DNA of 64,000 bases from Kiritimatiellia bacterium (GCA_041673345.1 JBAYXX010000003.1:23604-87603), one strand, 5' to 3'; positions 20,002 through 64,000 are shown, counted from the stretch's first letter. The notes: generated by a model not told the origin, from the sequence alone. Translations and numbers: made by a program.

Positions 20002-20197
20002 AGTGTAGTAGTCGCTCTATGAGCGACACAGAGGTCAGTGTAGTAGTCGCTCTATGAGCGACACAGAGGTCAGTGTAGTAGTCGCTCTATGAGCGACACA
20101 GAGGTCAGTGTAGTAGTCGCTCTATGAGCGACACAGAGGTTGGTGTAGTAGTCGCTCTATGAGCGACACATGCCGCTCATAGAGCGGCTACTACACT
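20002..20197. repeat. Tandem array: 5 x 35-bp unit (AGTGTAGTAGTCGCTCTATGAGCGACACAGAGGTC), each with a perfect 7-bp-stem hairpin, ending in an inverted copy
   Basis: Period 35 bp at 20002, 20037, 20072, 20107, 20142. No unique spacers, so not CRISPR. Same 25-bp module (module D) at 30016-30200, 37939-37994 and 46191-46236. Confidence 0.9.
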
Positions 20198-29961: not shown

Positions 29962-30790
29962 CCGTGGCTGTGACCGCGCGGCAAAGCGAGCCGCTTGCAA
30001 GAGCTGCTGTTCGGTGTCGCTCATAGAGCGACTACTACACACGCACTGCGCTTTGAAATGCAGGCTGGCTTGCAAGTCTTGCCGTTCGTGTAGTAGCCGC
30101 TCTACGAGCGGCATTGCGCTGCACTTTGAAATGCACGCCGGCTTGAAAGTCTTGATGATCGGTGTAGTAGACGCTCTATGAGCGGCATTGGTTGACGATA
30201 GCGGCGACGAGAGCGGATTAGGATTTCATCCCTCCTAATCATAATCTTAATCGTAATCCTAATCAAAATCGGTAGTTTTGGTCATGTGCAACTAGTGATG
30301 TTTAAATAGAAACCGTCAAGTTATAGGCAAGCCCGCCGCGCACCGCGGGTGCGAAAAAACGATGGGGTAACTCGACGGTCAAACGCATCGGAGTCGGGGT
30401 CGGGGTCGGAATCGGGGTCGACCTCGTACGCTTTTCGATACCGATACCGATACCGACCCCGACCCCGAGTTACAGGCACGAAACTGTGACAAAACCGTCA
30501 AGTTATAGGCAAGGGTAAACCCTGGGATCGCCGACGTCCTCGTCGGCCCTGCGGTTTTAACGCCTGCTCCTAATAAACTTGTGAAACCACAAGGAATTTA
30601 GCGCAGTCTAGCCGCCTGTCTTGCTACGCACAGGCAGGCAACCATTTTTTTTGACAGGATAACAGGATTGACAGGATTTACTTGATAAATTATCACTCAC
30701 AGAGTCGGAGAACACTGAGAGCAAAACATAGCCCTCTGCGAACTCTGCGACTCAGTGAGAGATAAGGAACGCGCCAGCCGAGTGATTGGC
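29962..30790. repeat. Composite repeat cluster: three module-D hairpins spaced about 72 bp apart (two full ~72-bp units), module C, (TAATC)n, 24-bp direct repeats flanking a (GGGGTC)n/(GGTATC)n palindrome, CCTGTCTTGC..GCAGGCAGG palindrome
   Basis: Module-D hairpins at 30016, 30101 and 30174. AAACCGTCAAGTTATAGGCAAG at 30311 and 30490 flanks palindrome 30388-30475. The translated ORF-track entries in this region are repeat artefacts. Confidence 0.8.
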
Positions 30791-51874: not shown

Positions 51875-52165
51875 TCACCGATACGGGCATCTGTTTCGAA
51901 CGCCCGCGAAATGCTGGTTGAGGATTTTTGTGACCTCCGCGTTTTTGAACGACTCGCGGGCCATGACATGACACCAATGGAAGGTGGAGTAGTCGATGGA
52001 GAGGAAAATAGGCTTATTCGTTTTGCGTGCTTCGGTAAACGCTTCATCGCCCCAGGGATACCAGTCAACCGGATTGTGTACATGTTGCAGCAGGTAAGGG
52101 CTCTTCTCGTGTATCAAACGGTTTGTGTGCATACTCTCTTTCCCCGTGGTCGTCGACTTGTCCAT
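51875..52165 (-). pseudogene. Duplicated 5' fragment (about 85 codons) of the DUF255 thioredoxin-domain gene found intact at 61850->64000
   Basis: [48 protein letters not shown].. is about 85% nucleotide identity to 63700-63990. Diverges into junk after about 85 codons. Confidence 0.6.
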
Positions 52166-52784: not shown

Positions 52785-52874
52785 TACCCCTTAACAAAAT
52801 CCTTCAAAAAATTGAAGAAAGGAAAAGCCACGTGGAACAGCTGAATCATAGCCGTAACCAATTTTTATCTGAAA

Positions 52875-52990
52875 CCACAAAGGACCTAGCGCAGCATAGC
52901 CGCCTGTCTTGCAACACACAGGCAGGCAACTAATTTTTTATCTCTCACAGAGGCACAGAGTTCTCAGAGTTGTTTTGCCCGCGAATCTCC
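52875..52990. repeat. Partial copy of the element inserted in copA (includes the 23-bp TIR TTATCTCTCACAGAGGCACAGAG)
   Basis: CCTAGCGCAGCATAGCCGC...TTATCTCTCACAGAGGCACAGAGTTCTCAGAGTTGTTT matches 57141-57235. Confidence 0.75.
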
Positions 52991-53390
52991 GCTAAATGAC
53001 AAGGGGATTTCATCCCCACTTCGTGGGGTCGCTAATCACTTGAAATACCCTTTCAATAACCCGTTTGGAACAGGCTAAAGCATTGTTTAAACAATAAATT
53101 TCGTTTCCCCAAACGCGCAGCGTTTGTTACTAAAGCAGCGGGCTCCTAACCACTAATTTCTCAGTGAGGGCGACGACCTTCCGCACATCACACAAACTCT
53201 TTTGGTTGCGGCGACTAGCTGCTTTAGGTTGTTTTGTGGTTTCCAAACTTTTATCGGATAAGTTATTTGAAACAAGTTTATTTTTGACAAAACCCGCAAT
53301 TAGTGCAATTATTCCGTCATCATTAATCAAGTATCCGCGTAAACTACGGCCAGTCGTACAATAATTTATTGAGCAACAAAGGAGATAAAG

Positions 53391-54127: not shown

Positions 54128-54200
54128 CAGGTGCCAGGCTGGCAGGTGCCAACCGGGGTCGTGCCAACCGGGGTCGTGCCAACCGGGGTCATCCATTATA
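54128..54200. repeat. Tandem 15-bp repeat (GTGCCAACCGGGGTC) x3 plus degenerate copies
   Basis: Direct reading of 54128-54200. Confidence 0.85.
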
Positions 54201-54246
54201 TTAGTAATTAATGATTGACGCGAGATTTAAAGCTGTGCTCATGTGG

Positions 54247-54480
54247 AACTTGGCAAGAAAACTGCGAGTTGAATAGCCTGGCGCGATTTATCATATTACC
54301 CATCGTGGCAATGGGAAGATGCAGATATTTTCCGATGACCATGACCGCGATAGGTTTCTCCTGCGGCTGGCTGAGAGCCTTGATACAGGTAATGCGGAGC
54401 TTAAAATCCAACTTGAAGAGATAACGGAAAAGCTTGAATTGCTTCGAGAGGAAAACTGCAATGCGTTTAATTACTAATCT
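54247..54480 (+). pseudogene. Remnant of a REP-associated tyrosine transposase (RAYT / IS200-like TnpA) with in-frame TAG replacing the conserved Tyr
   Basis: MWNLARKLRVE*PGAIYHITHRGNGKMQIFSDDHDRDRFLLRLAESL matches the RAYT N-terminus (..RVEYPGAIYHV.NRGN....F.DD.DR..FL..L). Unrelated sequence follows. Confidence 0.45.
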
Positions 54481-54528
54481 AAGGTTTGATATACGTCGGA
54501 GTATTGGAGAGCATACGGGGCAAAAACT

Positions 54529-54729
54529 ATGAAGTCCATCAGCATTGACACTTGTGTGGTTTTGCGTCTTCTTGTTGGCACGCTTGAGAAACAATCTGAA
54601 CAGGCCGTTGGTTTTTTACAGGAATCCTTTTCCAAGGGCGTGAGGATATGTGTATCAGATTTGGTTGTTGCTGAGAGTTATCACGCACTTATCTATCATT
54701 ACAATGTTCCCAAGCTTAAAGCAATATAA
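54529..54729 (+). pseudogene. Truncated PIN-domain (VapC-like) toxin fragment
   Basis: SIDTCVVLRLLVG...VSDLVVAESYHAL corresponds to the first two conserved acidic positions of the PIN fold. ORF ends after 66 aa. No antitoxin gene evident. Confidence 0.35.
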
Positions 54730-55059
54730 CATTCACAACCACCGGCCAAAGGAAAGATACCCGCTACAATCTAATGCAGCAGAGCTGCAACCAAACTGTA
54801 TTGAAATATAACAAACATAGGTGGTTTCTCCTGTTGTTTTTTTAAAAGTTGTTTGCCGAGCCTTAGAGCGACTTTTTAAGCAATCATCCACCAGATACCG
54901 GCGGATATACTGTGTTGCTTCCCGTATGTCCGCCGGTATCCGTCATGTCAATGACGATTCCCAGCCGCTTAGTAGCGGGAATCTCATCGGTGTAGAATGC
55001 TTGTTTGCCTCGGGTGGCATGCAGCAGAAGAGGGTGATGACCCTCTCAACTCGCTTCCA

Positions 55060-57728
55060 TTAGAACTGCCAGCGCAGACCGCCGCCACAACCAAAATCGG
55101 AGTGCCATTGGCCGATCAGGGAAAAGTGTTTGGTAAGCAAATAGCCGGTGCCCGCGCGGATCTCCCAATGTTCTTTCGTATCATATTCGGCCTCAGAAAA
55201 CACCGCGAGTCGCGGCGTGAGTTCAAGGTGCTTACCGACGGCGAATTGGAACTCACCGGCTGTGTCCACCCACACGCGTGATGTGATATTGAGCGGCAGT
55301 AGATAGCGCAGGCCGAAGATACCCTCGTGCTTGTCGAAGTGATCGTCCGCTCCCTCAAGGTCAAGCCCTGCGAAGAGAGTGGTAAAACGGTTCAGGTAAT
55401 AATCGTAGGTGGGCGCGACCTCCCACTCTACGTCATCCACGTGCTGCCAGCCAGCCTGCCATTCGGTAGAGAAGATGTGCCGCGAGTTGGCGTAAACCAA
55501 CACTCCCTGCGACATCTGCGAAAGCGCATCCACCCGACCATACAGGTAGAACGGGTCATCGTAGAGTAGTGGACGCACGGCGGCGGTGGCTGGGTCGGGG
55601 ACGAACCCCTGATAATGCACCACCGCCGCCATGCCGCTCATCATGTGATAGAGCAGGTGGCAGTGGAAAAACCAGTCGCCGAACTCATCCGCCGCAAACT
55701 CAATCACAGTAGTCGTCATGGGGGCGACATCCACGGTGTGTTTGAGCGGTGAATGATCTCCCTGGGCGTTGAGCACCCGGAAGAAATGGCCGTGAAGATG
55801 CATCGGGTGATGCATCATGGTGCGGTTGATCATGATGAACCGCACCACCTCGCCGCGTTTGATTTCAATGTCGTCACGCTCGGACAACGGCTTGTTGTTC
55901 AGAAACCAGAGGTAACGCTCCATGTCGCCATCGAGGGTGAGCCGGATTTTTCGGATCGGTTTTGAAGAATCGAATGCGGTGGATTGCAGGGCGCGTAGCT
56001 TGTCGTAAGGCGGCCCTGGACGTTCCTCGCTCATGTTGTCAGCGGCCAGCGGGGTTTGAGAACTCACATCCTCAGCGAGTAGTCCGAGCCAGGTGCTATT
56101 GGGTGCAGTGGTTTTCCCTTCGGAAACCATACCCGTACCCATCGGCGCCTTTTCGTGCATCATACCGCTCATGTCGTGGCCCGCGTGTTCCATCGCGGGT
56201 GCGGCGTCCATCCCTGAATAGTTCGTTTTAGCGGCATTCGGAGCCATCTCGCCGTGATCCATTCCCTTCATTCCTTCCATCTCCTGCATGCCGTCCATAC
56301 TCTCCATTCCCTCCATACTGTTCATGCCCGGTTGATCGAACTTGCCGGCACGTACAGCGTTGCCCGACATACCCATCGAACCGCCTGGGGTCAGTGCGAA
56401 CACGCGTTTGAGCGAGAGGCCGCCCATGCTGTCGTAAAGATTGGGGGACGGAATGTCCGGCGCGGCGTGCCGTGTTCCGTCACCAATCCACAGCGACGCA
56501 TGCCCTGATCCATCATGAGCTGTTGCGCGAAACTCGTAGCTGCCTTCATCCGGCATTGTAACGATCACGTCATAGGTCTCAGCCACGCCCATCAGCAACC
56601 GCTCTTCGTTGAAGGGATGCACCAGTTGTCCGTCCGCCGAGATCACCTGCATCGGGCCGCCGGCAAACTGCAAATAGAAGAACGTGGAGGCCGAACCATC
56701 GATGACCCGGAGCCGGATCTTTTCGCCCGGCTTAGCGGTGAGGGCGTGGTGCGGTGCGCCGTTGAGCAGAAAGCGATCATAGTACACATCGGACAGATCC
56801 ATGGGTGGCATGCGTTGAAGCTCCCTTGAGAAATACGCGCCCAACAGTCCCAGCCGCGCTGCACCCAGCACGCTTTGACCGCTGCCTTTCTTAATTGAAT
56901 ACCACTCGCTGCCACGTTTGAGGGTGTGGAGCACCGAGTTCGGGTCGTCATCTGTCCAATCGGATAGCACCACGACGTGGTCACGCAGCTGGTCAAACAC
57001 GCCCTTATCCTTCGGCGCGATGACCAATGCTCCGAACAGTCCGCGCTGTTCCTGGAGCATGGTGTGGCTGTGATACCAGTAGGTACCGGATTGACGCAGA
57101 TCAAACTCATAGGTGAATGTCGTACCAGGTGCAATGGGTGGATATGTCCTAGCGCAGCATAGCCGCAACCAATTCTTTATCTCTCACAGAGGCACAGAGT
57201 TCTCTGAGTTGTTTCAGAGTTTCCACCAGCAAAGACTCAAAGGCGTAAAGTTCGGGCTCGACGTTCCCAGTTTTCCACATTTTTCACCTCTAAGATTTTT
57301 CACCTTAAAATATTCTCTCAGTGCTGCGAAAAGTTCAGCTACTCTCTGTGTTCTCTGTGCCTCTGTGAGAGATAATAAACGTACAAAAAAAACAAGAATA
57401 TGAATGATAGTAGTACAAAGGGCACGCTGTCCATGTTGTTGGGCAGCAGAATTCCATGCCAGTGAATCGAGGTCTCCACGTCCACCTGGTTATGGACGCG
57501 GATTGTTGCATGGTCGCCGTCGGTGAAACGCAGGGTCGGCCCCGGTAGTTGACCATTGAGGGTCATGGCCTGGACAGGATGGCCGGTGATGTTTATCTCC
57601 TGCCGGGCAATGGTGAGGTCATATTCCACGGTTGCCGCCGATAAGATCGCCCACGGCACGAACAGCGCCAAGGTGCCCAACAGCACCGCCATGGGATTCA
57701 CAGACCATGTTTTGGTTGGTCGCATCAT
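55060..57728 (-). pseudogene. copA: Multicopper oxidase (CopA/PcoA-like) fused to a CopB/PcoB-like outer-membrane domain, disrupted by a ~290-bp repeat/MITE insertion
   Basis: All four MCO copper motifs (HWHG at 57440s, WYHSH, HPMHLHGH, HCHLLYHMMSGM). Met/His-rich MxxM repeats. About 180-aa C-terminal extension ending ..RWQF. Coding sequence is interrupted between HWHGILLPNNMD (about 57429) and YPPIAPG (about 57135). Insert length is not a multiple of 3. Confidence 0.6.
57177..57375. mobile_element. ~199-bp MITE with perfect 23-bp terminal inverted repeats (TTATCTCTCACAGAGGCACAGAG) inserted in copA
   Basis: Left TIR 57177-57199. Right TIR 57353-57375 (reverse complement). No transposase ORF. 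Left-end copy at about 52935-52975. Confidence 0.7.
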
Positions 57729-61849: not shown

Positions 61850-64000
61850 TCATTTTTTCACCTTCAGGAGTTCTGCCAACGCCTTCACATCGCTCGTGGG
61901 GAGTTGACACACAAAGTTCTCGCACACGTAGGCTGTTGCCCGATTGTTCTTTGGCGCGATCTCCTTTATGAAATCGACATGTTTGGCGAAAAAAGCCTGC
62001 CCCGTGCCGCCATCGGTCAGAATGGTGATTGTGTTGGGCGTGAACCTGGAGTGGATTTCGCGAAGCAGCTCCTGTGTATCGGGTGCATCCAATGTGCCGG
62101 CGATGATGATTTGTTTCGGGGTCGCACGCAGCCAGTCCAGCGCAACGAGCATCAAAGGCATTGCAAAAGGCGTATTTGCGAGTTGCTGACCGACTGCGTG
62201 TAAAGTCTTTTCGGCGCGCACGTGCCAATCTGCTCGATCAAGCATCTGCGCCAGACGCAACAAGTTAAGCACCGCGACCGAGTTCGGCGACGGCTCAGCA
62301 CCGTCGTAGCTTTCCTTGGACCTTAGCAGGATATGTGCATCCTTGCCGCTGGTGGCAAAATAGCCGCCGTCGGCACTATCCCAGAACAGCTCATCCTGTC
62401 GCGCCTGGATTTCCATAGCCCATTCGATCCACTTCGGATCGAAGGTGGTTTCATAAAGATCAAGCAGTCCTTGAATCAAGAACGCATAATCCTCCGCAAA
62501 CCCCTCCACGGCACTCGCGCCCTCGCGATAGGTGCGCAACAGCGTCCGGTCCTGCTCGCGATACAGTTCTGCGCGTACAAATCTGGCTGCGCGCGTCGCG
62601 GCATCGCGGTAGCGGATATCGCCCAGCACCTGTGCAGCCCGAGCGAAGGCTGAGATCATGAGGCCGTTCCACGCGGTGATGATCTTGTCGTCACGATGCG
62701 GTCGCGGTCGTTTTCTACGCACCTTGGCGAGCAGTACACAGTCTGTGTCCAGCGCTGCCGCTGCCACTTTTTCGGCTAGGCCGAATTGGTTCGCCGTCTC
62801 GGCGATGGTGTGGCGTTGGATGAGGATGTTCTTGCCTTCAAACTCTTCTTGAGGATCGCTGCCAGGTGGCGCATTGCCTCTCGTCTCAATGCCGAAGCGG
62901 TAGTTGAACTGCGCCGTGCGCTCCGGGCCGAGTACACGCGCAATCTCGTCGGCCGTCCAGAGATAGAACGCGCCCTCGGCGTGTTCGGGTTTGCCGTGCG
63001 CAAGCGGGCTGTCCGCATCCTCCGCTGAGTAGAATCCACCCGTCGGATGGGTCATATCGCGCAGGACGTAGTCGAGAGTGTCGCGTGCGGTCTGTTTGTA
63101 CTGCGGCTCGTGGGTGATCTGGAATGCCGTGAGGTAAGCTGAGGCGAGTTGCGCTTGGTCGTAGAGCATCTTCTCGAAATGCGGCACATGCCAGAATCGG
63201 TCTACAGCATAGCGGTGGAAACCACCCCCAAGCTGGTCACGGATACCACCTGCGGTCATACGGTGCAAGGTGAAGAGTGCCATTTCCAGCGCCTTCTGAC
63301 CGTCTTTGGAGTTCGGATTACCCGCATAGAAGCGATAGAGAAAGTCAAAGATGACCGGGCGCGGAAACTTGGGTGCCGACCCGAACCCGCCGAGTTGGTC
63401 GTCGAAGGATGCGGCGATCTGCTCGAACGCCTTTTTAGGGATGCCGGTTTTGATCTCATTTTTGGGATCACCACTTGGCTGGGCGACCTTTCGTAACGAT
63501 TCGACGATGCGATCCGAGCTCGCGGTGATTTCCGCTTGCTCGGTCTTCCAGACATCGCTGATCTTGTTGGCCAGCGTCGCGAGCTGTTGCGGCGGAAAGT
63601 AGGTTCCCCCGAAGAACGGCTTAAGATCCGGCGTGAGCCACACCGTCATCGGCCATCCGCCACCGCCAGTGGTTGCTTGCACAAAGGTCATATAGACGCG
63701 ATCCACGTCGGGCCGTTCCTCGCGATCCACCTTGACGCAGACGAAATGCTGGTTGAGAATTTTTGCGACCTCCGGGTTTTCGAACGACTCGCGAGCCATG
63801 ACGTGGCACCAATGGCAGGTGGAGTAGCCGATGGAGAGATAAATCGGCTTGTTCAGTTTGCGTGCTTCGGCAAACGCTTCCTCGCCCCAGGGGTACCAGT
63901 CAACCGGATTGTGCGCATGCTGGAACAGGTAGGGGCTCTTCTCGTGAATCAGGCGGTTTGTGTGCATAGTCTCGTTTTCCGTAATCGTTGGCTTGTCCGC
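61850..64000 (-). CDS. Thioredoxin-domain-containing protein, DUF255/YyaL family (N-acylglucosamine-epimerase-like C-terminal domain), 5' end beyond window
   Basis: [15 protein letters not shown] thioredoxin-like motif and a long alpha/alpha-toroid C-terminal region. Frame remains open past 63967 (..[16 protein letters not shown]). Confidence 0.8.

Follow-up and report, generated by a model that had tools for sequence, protein, structure and literature searches.

What has split the copA-like multicopper oxidase gene on the minus strand at 55060-57728 of a 64,000-nucleotide stretch from a Kiritimatiellia bacterium (GCA_041673345.1, JBAYXX010000003.1:23604-87603; hereinafter the window), and what could have moved the intruding DNA there? 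A preliminary description had attributed the split to a miniature inverted-repeat transposable element (MITE) of about 200 bp, bounded by perfect 23-bp terminal inverted repeats (TIRs), within 292 bp of intervening DNA. We find that the gene is indeed interrupted by a small, non-coding, multicopy mobile element, and that, as stated there, no transposase lies inside the insert; however, alignment to orthologues gives an intervening segment of 266 bp (57149-57414), and the moving unit is this entire segment, with asymmetric ends, the 23-bp repeat being an internal hairpin. The explanation that we favor, with a probability of about 0.72, is that the insert is a non-autonomous derivative of an element resembling an insertion sequence (IS), whose full-length form of about 1.76 kb encodes one 516-aa protein of an unannotated family. 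There is firm evidence for the insertion itself; that the protein represents a new transposase family is plausible. The principal features of the interrupted gene are as follows:

57415-57728, minus strand: N-terminal part of the oxidase, with a signal-peptide-like start and the first cupredoxin domain up to ..HWHGILLPNNMDSVPFV
57149-57414, plus strand: non-autonomous element of 266 bp, an identical multicopy unit whose deletion restores the oxidase frame (the plus sign denotes the direction of the open reading frame (ORF) in its full-length relatives)
55060-57148, minus strand: C-terminal part of the oxidase, from TYPPIAPG (TYPPIAPGTTF..) to the stop codon, an open frame without a start codon or signal peptide of its own

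The N-terminal piece, which ends ..IHWHGILLPNNMDSVPFV, matches profile positions 2-69 of the 119 of the Pfam Cu-oxidase_3 domain (E-value 8.7e-17), and positions 73-118 of the same profile are found at the start of the C-terminal piece, followed there by Cu-oxidase and Cu-oxidase_2. Thus, the three cupredoxin domains with copper-binding histidine motifs that are expected of a CopA-like protein are spread over both pieces. A homologue search with the two pieces fused into a single query matched 7,978 proteins at E <= 1e-20; the top intact orthologues, of about 800 aa and 74-86% identity, run unbroken over the insertion site, and the motif HWHGILLPNAMDGVPF(V/L)TYPPIAPG is uninterrupted in 40/40 inspected orthologues. 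One retrieved protein, labelled as coming from a Kiritimatiellia metagenome-assembled genome, is identical to the 702-aa C-terminal ORF. At the DNA level, joining 57728..57415 directly to 57148..55060 yields the translation HGILLPNNMDSVPFVTYPPIAPGTTF, colinear with the orthologue of locus L094, the matching stretch across the join being HGILLPNNMDSVPFVTYPPIAPG; a site devoid of the element would read CCCTTTGT-GACATATCC. The codons for SVPFV on one side of the insert and for T on the other therefore belong to the oxidase gene and not to the element. Hence, the comparison with an uninterrupted orthologue proposed in the preliminary description places the two pieces contiguously, without a gap, on one protein.

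The N-terminal ORF (57339..57728) enters the element by 24 codons before reaching a stop codon. The insert shifts the copA frame and cuts off the signal peptide and the first copper-site motif from the remainder of the protein; the gene is therefore inactivated. That the event is recent, as had been surmised earlier, is indicated by the 100% identity of copies elsewhere and by both gene halves being otherwise intact and open. Signs of subsequent decay are at most weak: at near-invariant columns defined by 119 orthologues, the window oxidase deviates at 5/242 positions and eleven control proteins at 0-4, a suggestive but non-significant indication of relaxed constraint. The deviating columns include a Gly-to-Ser change in the DGVP motif beside the junction; the codon AGC at 57425-57427, four codons upstream of the insertion point, places Ser where 119/119 orthologues have Gly. 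In other respects the gene resembles the CopA/PcoA-type periplasmic multicopper oxidases, with which it shares the HWHG and HCH copper motifs, the three cupredoxin domains and a segment rich in Met and His, and is set apart from them by this Ser in place of the invariant Gly and, along with the rest of its ~800-aa clade, by an additional C-terminal region of ~190 aa ending ..GLRWQF. This region (55060-55640) has no Pfam match, and its length is conserved in every listed orthologue. Its ..GGGLRWQF end is similar to the terminal aromatic signature of outer-membrane beta-barrels, suggesting a possible fusion of the CopA-CopB kind.

On the copA sense strand the element reads ACTACTATC...GCGCTAG, with a boundary ambiguity of 1 nt (57149-57414 or 57148-57413), since one junction base (A or G) is unassignable. 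A metagenome scan with its 38-nt end recovered 75 loci, among them at least 27 copies with both ends, so that the proposed search for further copies was successful; 10 are identical at 266/266 positions and 6 more at 257-263/266, all of these from different loci of metagenome Ga0265294, and many more copies lie at contig ends. The flanks of the ten identical copies are mutually unrelated, which delimits the mobile unit as ACTACTATC to GCGCTAG. The layout of the copA insert recurs in full at several Kiritimatiellae loci, down to the 38 nt and 29 nt on the outer sides of the inverted repeat. The 266-bp unit is thus multicopy and recently active. Identical copies are mostly situated in non-coding DNA, in either orientation; however, locus L163 (Ga0265294_10001483, minus strand) presents a second gene disruption, in which a 266/266 copy splits a galactokinase-like ORF at ..TDYNEGYV|FSAAINFG... 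For this genome, it follows that a copper-resistance oxidase was lost very recently to an element whose activity in the population continues.

The insert comprises the following parts, its end modules being compared with those of an ORF-bearing element of 1757 bp at locus L099:

57377-57414, plus strand: right-end module ..AACGTACAAAAAAAACAAGAATATGAATGATAGTAGT, corresponding at 94.7% identity to nt 1-38 of the L099 element when this is read in the copA sense
57344-57375, no strand: right arm of the hairpin, an inverted-repeat match to the left arm
57177-57208, no strand: left arm of the hairpin, made of CACAGAG-type repeats and holding the previously noted 23-mer
57149-57177, plus strand: left-end module CTAGCGCAGCATAGCCGCAACCAATTCTT, corresponding at 93% identity to the final 29 nt of the L099 element, with another occurrence at 52885-52903
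57149-57280, minus strand: 43-codon ORF inside the element, with the strong Shine-Dalgarno sequence GAGGTGAAAAATG

The L099 element has the same two ends and a single 516-aa ORF, on the strand opposite to the copA sense, and provides the kind of autonomous partner for which a search had been proposed. In loci L170-L179 the left-end module lies upstream of the 516-aa ORF, and the motif ..GA(T/G)AGTAGT of the right end is found downstream of its stop codon, as it is in L099. A 367-bp element in locus L117 keeps the first 190 nt of the L099 type at 95% identity, including the last 42 codons of the ORF, together with the last 29 nt. The sharing of ends with L099 and the ORF remnant in L117 constitute the pattern expected of internal-deletion derivatives; on this account, the mini-element would have arisen by an internal deletion that spared 38 nt at the beginning and 29 nt at the end of the full-length element.

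The inverted repeat at the center of the preliminary description is real: TTATCTCTCACAGAGGCACAGAG at 57177-57199 has its exact reverse complement at 57353-57375, a match that 0/100 shuffles produced, and the pairing can be extended to 32 nt at 88% complementarity. Yet the arms begin 38 nt from one end of the element and 29 nt from the other, and the actual ends, ACTACTATCATTC.. and ..GCTGCGCTAG, are not mutual inverted copies; the element therefore has no TIRs. Folding predicts a single long stem (RNA z-score -4.6, DNA z-score -2.6) and, besides this central hairpin, a small 5-bp hairpin near one end of the element, with no matching hairpin seen in the other end. Family members with the same ends vary internally, ranging from 164 to 367 bp and enclosing different hairpins, none at all, or a piece of the ORF; moreover, a 20-mer core of the inverted repeat occurs at more than 93 loci of one-per-species genomes from many phyla, where it is normally one arm of a hairpin whose arms consist of tandem (NN)CACAGAG units and whose loops are variable. 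On these two grounds, the 23-bp repeat is an internal, generic hairpin module and not a transposon terminus. The 20-mer TCTCTCACAGAGGCACAGAG itself was seen in Kiritimatiellae, Lentisphaerae, Planctomycetes, Desulfobulbaceae, Akkermansia, Longimicrobia, and Bacteroidales, where, at loci L001-L093 (e.g., L009, L018, L038, L053), it is an arm of CACAGAG/CACGGAG heptad hairpins with variable loops. Such hairpins may serve as landing pads for the element family.

Two other roles for the insert's sequence were considered and rejected. A terminator or promoter function of the hairpin is at odds with a T-run on the wrong side of the stem and with consensus scans at chance level. The 43-codon ORF is probably not a gene: the copy in locus L062 keeps the Shine-Dalgarno sequence and ATG but is frameshifted after ~18 codons, so that the ORF is not conserved, and other copies of the Shine-Dalgarno module are followed by unrelated sequence.

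Several observations suggest, from comparative sequence data, that the ORF-bearing element is itself mobile. Homologues of the 516-aa protein, about 515-523 aa long, number at least 4,882 and lie almost all on contigs of 1.7-2.5 kb, the size at which assemblies break around a repeated element. Two sets of identical proteins (P0185 and P0169) each occur in several different neighborhoods, where the end motifs are unchanged and the insertion site is C|ACAGAG, C|ACGGAG or C|ACGAAG. In relatives that are 55-65% identical, the left end C(T/C)AGCGC.GC..AGCCGCAACCAA and the right end ..GA(T/G)AGTAGT recur, as do the flanks ..C| and |ACAGAG, |ACGGAG or |ACGAAG. A hairpin in the 5′ untranslated region sequesters the Shine-Dalgarno sequence and the AUG by pairing them with sequence farther upstream, and compensatory changes maintain the pairing in five diverged copies; hairpins that hide these signals limit read-through activation in insertion sequences. 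Rfam searches of three full-length elements gave nothing. ORFs around the end modules in 12 loci are ordinary genes, with no adjacent transposase gene, and M1-like modules in other metagenomes have no ORF downstream. In locus L139, a 266-bp copy interrupts a relative of the 516-aa ORF.

The junctions point to a fixed target. From 82 distinct 5′ and 48 distinct 3′ junctions we obtained the logo C49 T57 Y T54 G65 T69 | G42; i.e., the element sits between the T and G of CTYTGT|G, equivalent to C|ACRRAG on the opposite strand. This heptad is the same seven-base unit that composes the hairpin arms of the element, and the copA codons CCC TTT GT|G happen to resemble it. As to target-site duplications (TSDs), for which the preliminary description had suggested looking, there are none: precise removal of 266 bp restores the long ORFs of both copA and the L163 galactokinase. 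In copies within heptad arrays the next array unit is an imperfect look-alike of a duplication, and copies outside such arrays have no flanking repeat of this sort. Neither do the junctions ..TGT|ACTAC and GCTAG|G.. share a 2-nt core. The absence of TSDs argues against a staggered-cut DDE chemistry. In the favored scheme, the 516-aa protein would be a putative transposase that recognizes the target heptad, acts in trans on both end modules, and uses a site-specific or single-strand cut-and-join chemistry.

With respect to the protein itself, Pfam searches returned only a sub-threshold winged-helix match (residues 466-508), NCBIfam returned no match, PHROGs only regulator-like winged-helix matches, and a profile search of PDB sequences no match. 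An AlphaFold model of P0121, which is 99% identical to the L099 protein, predicts (pLDDT 80.6, pTM 0.69) a large sheet whose strands are unusually long, along with a helix of 37 residues and, at the C-terminus, a winged helix; comparison of this model to the PDB with Foldseek gave nothing better than E 0.013 and TM 0.16. An exhaustive profile search recovered 8,673 clusters (at 50% identity) with E <= 1e-3, of which 1,171 had E <= 1e-30. Among 93 diverse full-length members (28-49% identical to P0121, which served as the reference), residues conserved in at least 95% include D20, R21, E112, Y141, Y143, N169, E247, D251, K320, Y322, R330, and E332, and D20, E112, Y141, Y143, E247, D251, Y322, and E332 are invariant. 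The five acidic residues and three tyrosines among the latter would fit a metal-dependent nuclease or transesterase. No description of the family was found in the literature searched, by sequence or by keyword. Being unannotated in Pfam, NCBIfam, and the PDB, it apparently defines an undescribed insertion-sequence family.

We tentatively go further, at somewhat less than even odds, in suggesting that the 516-aa protein represents an unrecognized transposase superfamily, with a fold matching no solved structure, that would insert DNA without TSDs and in an orientation-specific manner between the C and A of CACRRAG, the CACAGAG-type hairpins of many phyla being its natural landing pads and the raw material of the mini-elements. 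Several points count against the favored explanation. The 516-aa protein contains no recognizable catalytic domain or motif of the DDE/RNase H, DEDD, HUH, or Ser/Tyr recombinase kinds; its sole recognizable domain is the winged helix, and relatives on plasmids are annotated as 'ArsR family transcriptional regulator' or 'hypothetical', which leaves room for a role as passenger or regulator. The 64-kb window contains no full-length copy, and the nearest, L099, comes from a different metagenome. Many copies reside within heptad arrays, and the apparent target preference could partly reflect sites where insertion is tolerated. Finally, the family is undescribed relative to sequence libraries and the literature alone, with ISfinder outside the comparison.

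In the serious rival to this explanation, another enzyme mobilizes both the 266-bp unit and the 1.76-kb element in trans, for instance a RayT- or IS200/IS605-type single-strand HUH tyrosine transposase that works on hairpins, and the 516-aa protein is a passenger or regulator. Sequence-specific insertion beside a short motif without TSDs is a hallmark of IS200/IS605, and the TSD-less insertion beside a fixed motif observed here fits HUH chemistry; the heptad hairpins have the look of repetitive extragenic palindromes (REPs), the window contains, at a distance of 2.7 kb (54250-54375), a remnant RayT-like N-terminus with a counterpart in locus L076, and a full RayT-like gene is found in L060, 3 kb from a hairpin. 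However, the piece in the window is a fragment of ~45 codons without a Pfam match, and it was the only trace of an HUH transposase that tblastn detected in the window with IS200-like and RayT-like queries, which were approximate, consensus-like sequences. Furthermore, no Y1 transposase or HUH gene was seen beside any copy, no two similar subterminal hairpins were seen at the element ends, the ORF accompanies the ends across relatives that are only 55-65% identical, and a conserved hairpin guards its start codon in the manner of insertion sequences. We accordingly consider mobilization by such an enzyme unlikely, if by no means negligible. The MITE of the preliminary description, taken as a ~199-bp unit of the Tc1/IS630-Stowaway type with a TA target and with the 38-nt and 29-nt flanks as unrelated remnants, can draw on the perfect 23-bp inverted repeat, the TA dinucleotides adjoining the TCTCTCAC...GTGAGAGA core, and a 76-bp version with similar arms at 30690-30765. 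Yet the outer flanks are 100% conserved in 10 copies amid unrelated surroundings, members with the same outer ends contain other hairpins or an ORF piece, the 199-bp core has no flanking direct repeat, and the flanks of such hairpins in other phyla are not TA. The conservation of the outer 38 nt and 29 nt and the absence of a duplication thus contradict this reading, which we deem very improbable. The short flanks had also been reported as shared with other parts of the window: the insert does share stretches with 52885-52975 and 30582-30765, but its flanks of 38 nt and 29 nt belong to the mobile unit and are not separate debris.

Two further possibilities would leave the oxidase gene functional or never interrupted in the cell. 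Removal of the insert at the RNA level, e.g., as a self-splicing intron, with the oxidase still being made, might be entertained given that the insert lies within a highly conserved motif with both halves open, and that, for boundaries of 57149-57414, U is the last base of the upstream exon and G that of the insert, an arrangement also found in group I introns. The chance of this is nevertheless exceedingly small: a permissive Rfam scan (E<=10) of 56900-57700 returned no intron match, the fold is a single long hairpin, identical copies lie mostly in non-coding DNA and in either orientation, and the ends match those of an ORF-bearing mobile element. Group I and group II introns were likewise rejected as candidates by gathering-threshold Rfam scans of the window and related loci, which gave only a cobalamin riboswitch and an unrelated group II intron in locus L019. 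As for an assembly artefact, in which a repeat was misplaced inside a gene of a metagenome-assembled genome, high-copy repeats do break assemblies, and many copies do lie at contig ends; but both junctions are nucleotide-precise, the gene halves are in the correct order and orientation, and the site fits the target motif of 82 other junctions, leaving this reading scarcely credible. The non-autonomous derivative of an ORF-bearing element thus remains our favored explanation.

Placed among known systems, the 266-bp element is functionally a MITE-like deletion derivative that lacks two classical MITE traits. Like MITEs formed by internal deletion of an IS, it is small, non-coding, and multicopy, and inactivates a gene by insertion; its two ends (93-95% identity to L099) are all that it has in common with a longer ORF-bearing element, and ORF-retaining intermediates exist. 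Unlike them, it has neither TIRs nor TSDs, and its conspicuous repeat is internal and does not define the family. To our knowledge, only four IS families lack both TIRs and TSDs, namely IS200/IS605, IS91, IS110, and IS607, each of which has revealed unusual chemistry or RNA guidance. With IS200/IS605 and the palindrome-associated mini-elements (PATEs), the present family has in common asymmetric ends, the lack of TSDs, insertion beside a fixed short sequence, and a wealth of hairpins; however, its 516-aa partner lacks a Y1 HUH (PF01797) or TnpB signature, no matching subterminal hairpins were seen at its two ends, and its target is a heptad of 6-7 nt as opposed to 4-5 nt. The IS110/IS1111 elements that target REPs or attC sites likewise insert in an orientation- and sequence-specific manner into repeated palindromes without classical TIRs or TSDs, but the partner ORF has no DEDD domain (PF01548/PF02371), the junctions have no repeated 2-nt core, and no long non-coding region like that of a bridge or seeker RNA was detected, the 5′ untranslated region spanning only about 100-165 nt. 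PF04986 of the IS91 rolling-circle (Y2 HUH) transposases is not matched by the partner ORF; a single exact head-to-tail junction was found (locus L161, below). Finally, the heptad hairpins recall the REPs and bacterial interspersed mosaic elements (BIMEs) associated with RayT (TnpA-REP) in being short, abundant, and mostly intergenic palindromes arranged in mosaics, with a RayT-like remnant nearby; in contrast, the 266-bp unit greatly exceeds a REP in length, terminates in defined, non-palindromic sequences, and enters genes, and no RayT gene flanked by heptad hairpins was found. The element family thus behaves like a fifth TSD-less, target-specific group, whose partner protein matches none of the enzymes of the four families. 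Were the 516-aa protein indeed the transposase, it would be a new sequence-specific DNA-insertion enzyme with a simple, predictable target; this would explain the recurrence of heptad hairpins across phyla and allow better annotation of short metagenomic contigs.

The window contains two further members of the family:

52870-53245, no strand: second family member, with two inverted left-end modules, each after a AACCACAAAG-type target sequence
30582-30765, plus strand: third family member, incomplete, in which a left-end module precedes a 76-bp CACAGAG-type hairpin and the right end is missing

In the former, the left-end modules enclose half a hairpin and another palindromic element. This second palindromic element, of ~300 bp, lies beside half a hairpin at 52938-53200 and also occurs in L062 (780-1120), L106, L112, L120, L127, and L165; it has the ends GCCCGCGAATCTCCGCGAA...TTCGCGGAGATTCGCGGG and the internal stem AAGGGTATTTCA...TGAAATACCCTT, and is without an Rfam match. 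In locus L161 (2700-2790), the 3′ end of an old, degenerate member directly joins the 5′ end of a perfect 266-bp copy (..GCTACGCTAG|ACTACTATC..); this single case could be a head-to-tail tandem or the trace of a joined-ends intermediate, and upstream of it we noticed by eye a fragment resembling an IS66-type transposase. The group II intron of L019 (1-1420) is closely followed by repeat modules, among them ..GCGCTAGG and the element's module with the Shine-Dalgarno sequence and ATG; it has a reverse transcriptase/maturase-like ORF (3-1313, by eye), and its domains V-VI match RF00029 (45 bits).

Elsewhere in the window, the RayT-like remnant, an N-terminus of the IS200 transposase type that reads ..PGAIYHITHRGNGKMQIFSDDHDRDRFLLRLAESL.. 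and has an in-frame stop, precedes a truncated ORF for a PIN-domain toxin (together 54205-54730); the pair is less decayed in L076 (4580-5581), and a 15-bp tandem repeat of GTGCCAACCGGGGTC, with ~4 units, lies just upstream of the remnant at 54131-54190. REP-like palindromes of the type GTAGGTCCGGTTTTCAACCGGACATGTCCGATTGGAAATCGGACCTAC, with a GTAG foot, occur at 743, 10837, 20568, 37745, 43899, and 46394, often adjoining GTGTAGTAGTCGCTCTATGAGCGAC hairpins, which form a 35-bp tandem array of ~5 units at 20002-20182. The segments 51900-52163 and 63735-63998 constitute a direct repeat of 264 bp with 86% identity; the first overlaps what looks like a fragment of a thioredoxin-domain (DUF255-like) ORF, which suggests a partial gene duplicate. 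Of all Rfam families, only the cobalamin riboswitch (RF00174; 8725-8844, minus strand; 61 bits) exceeds the threshold in the window.

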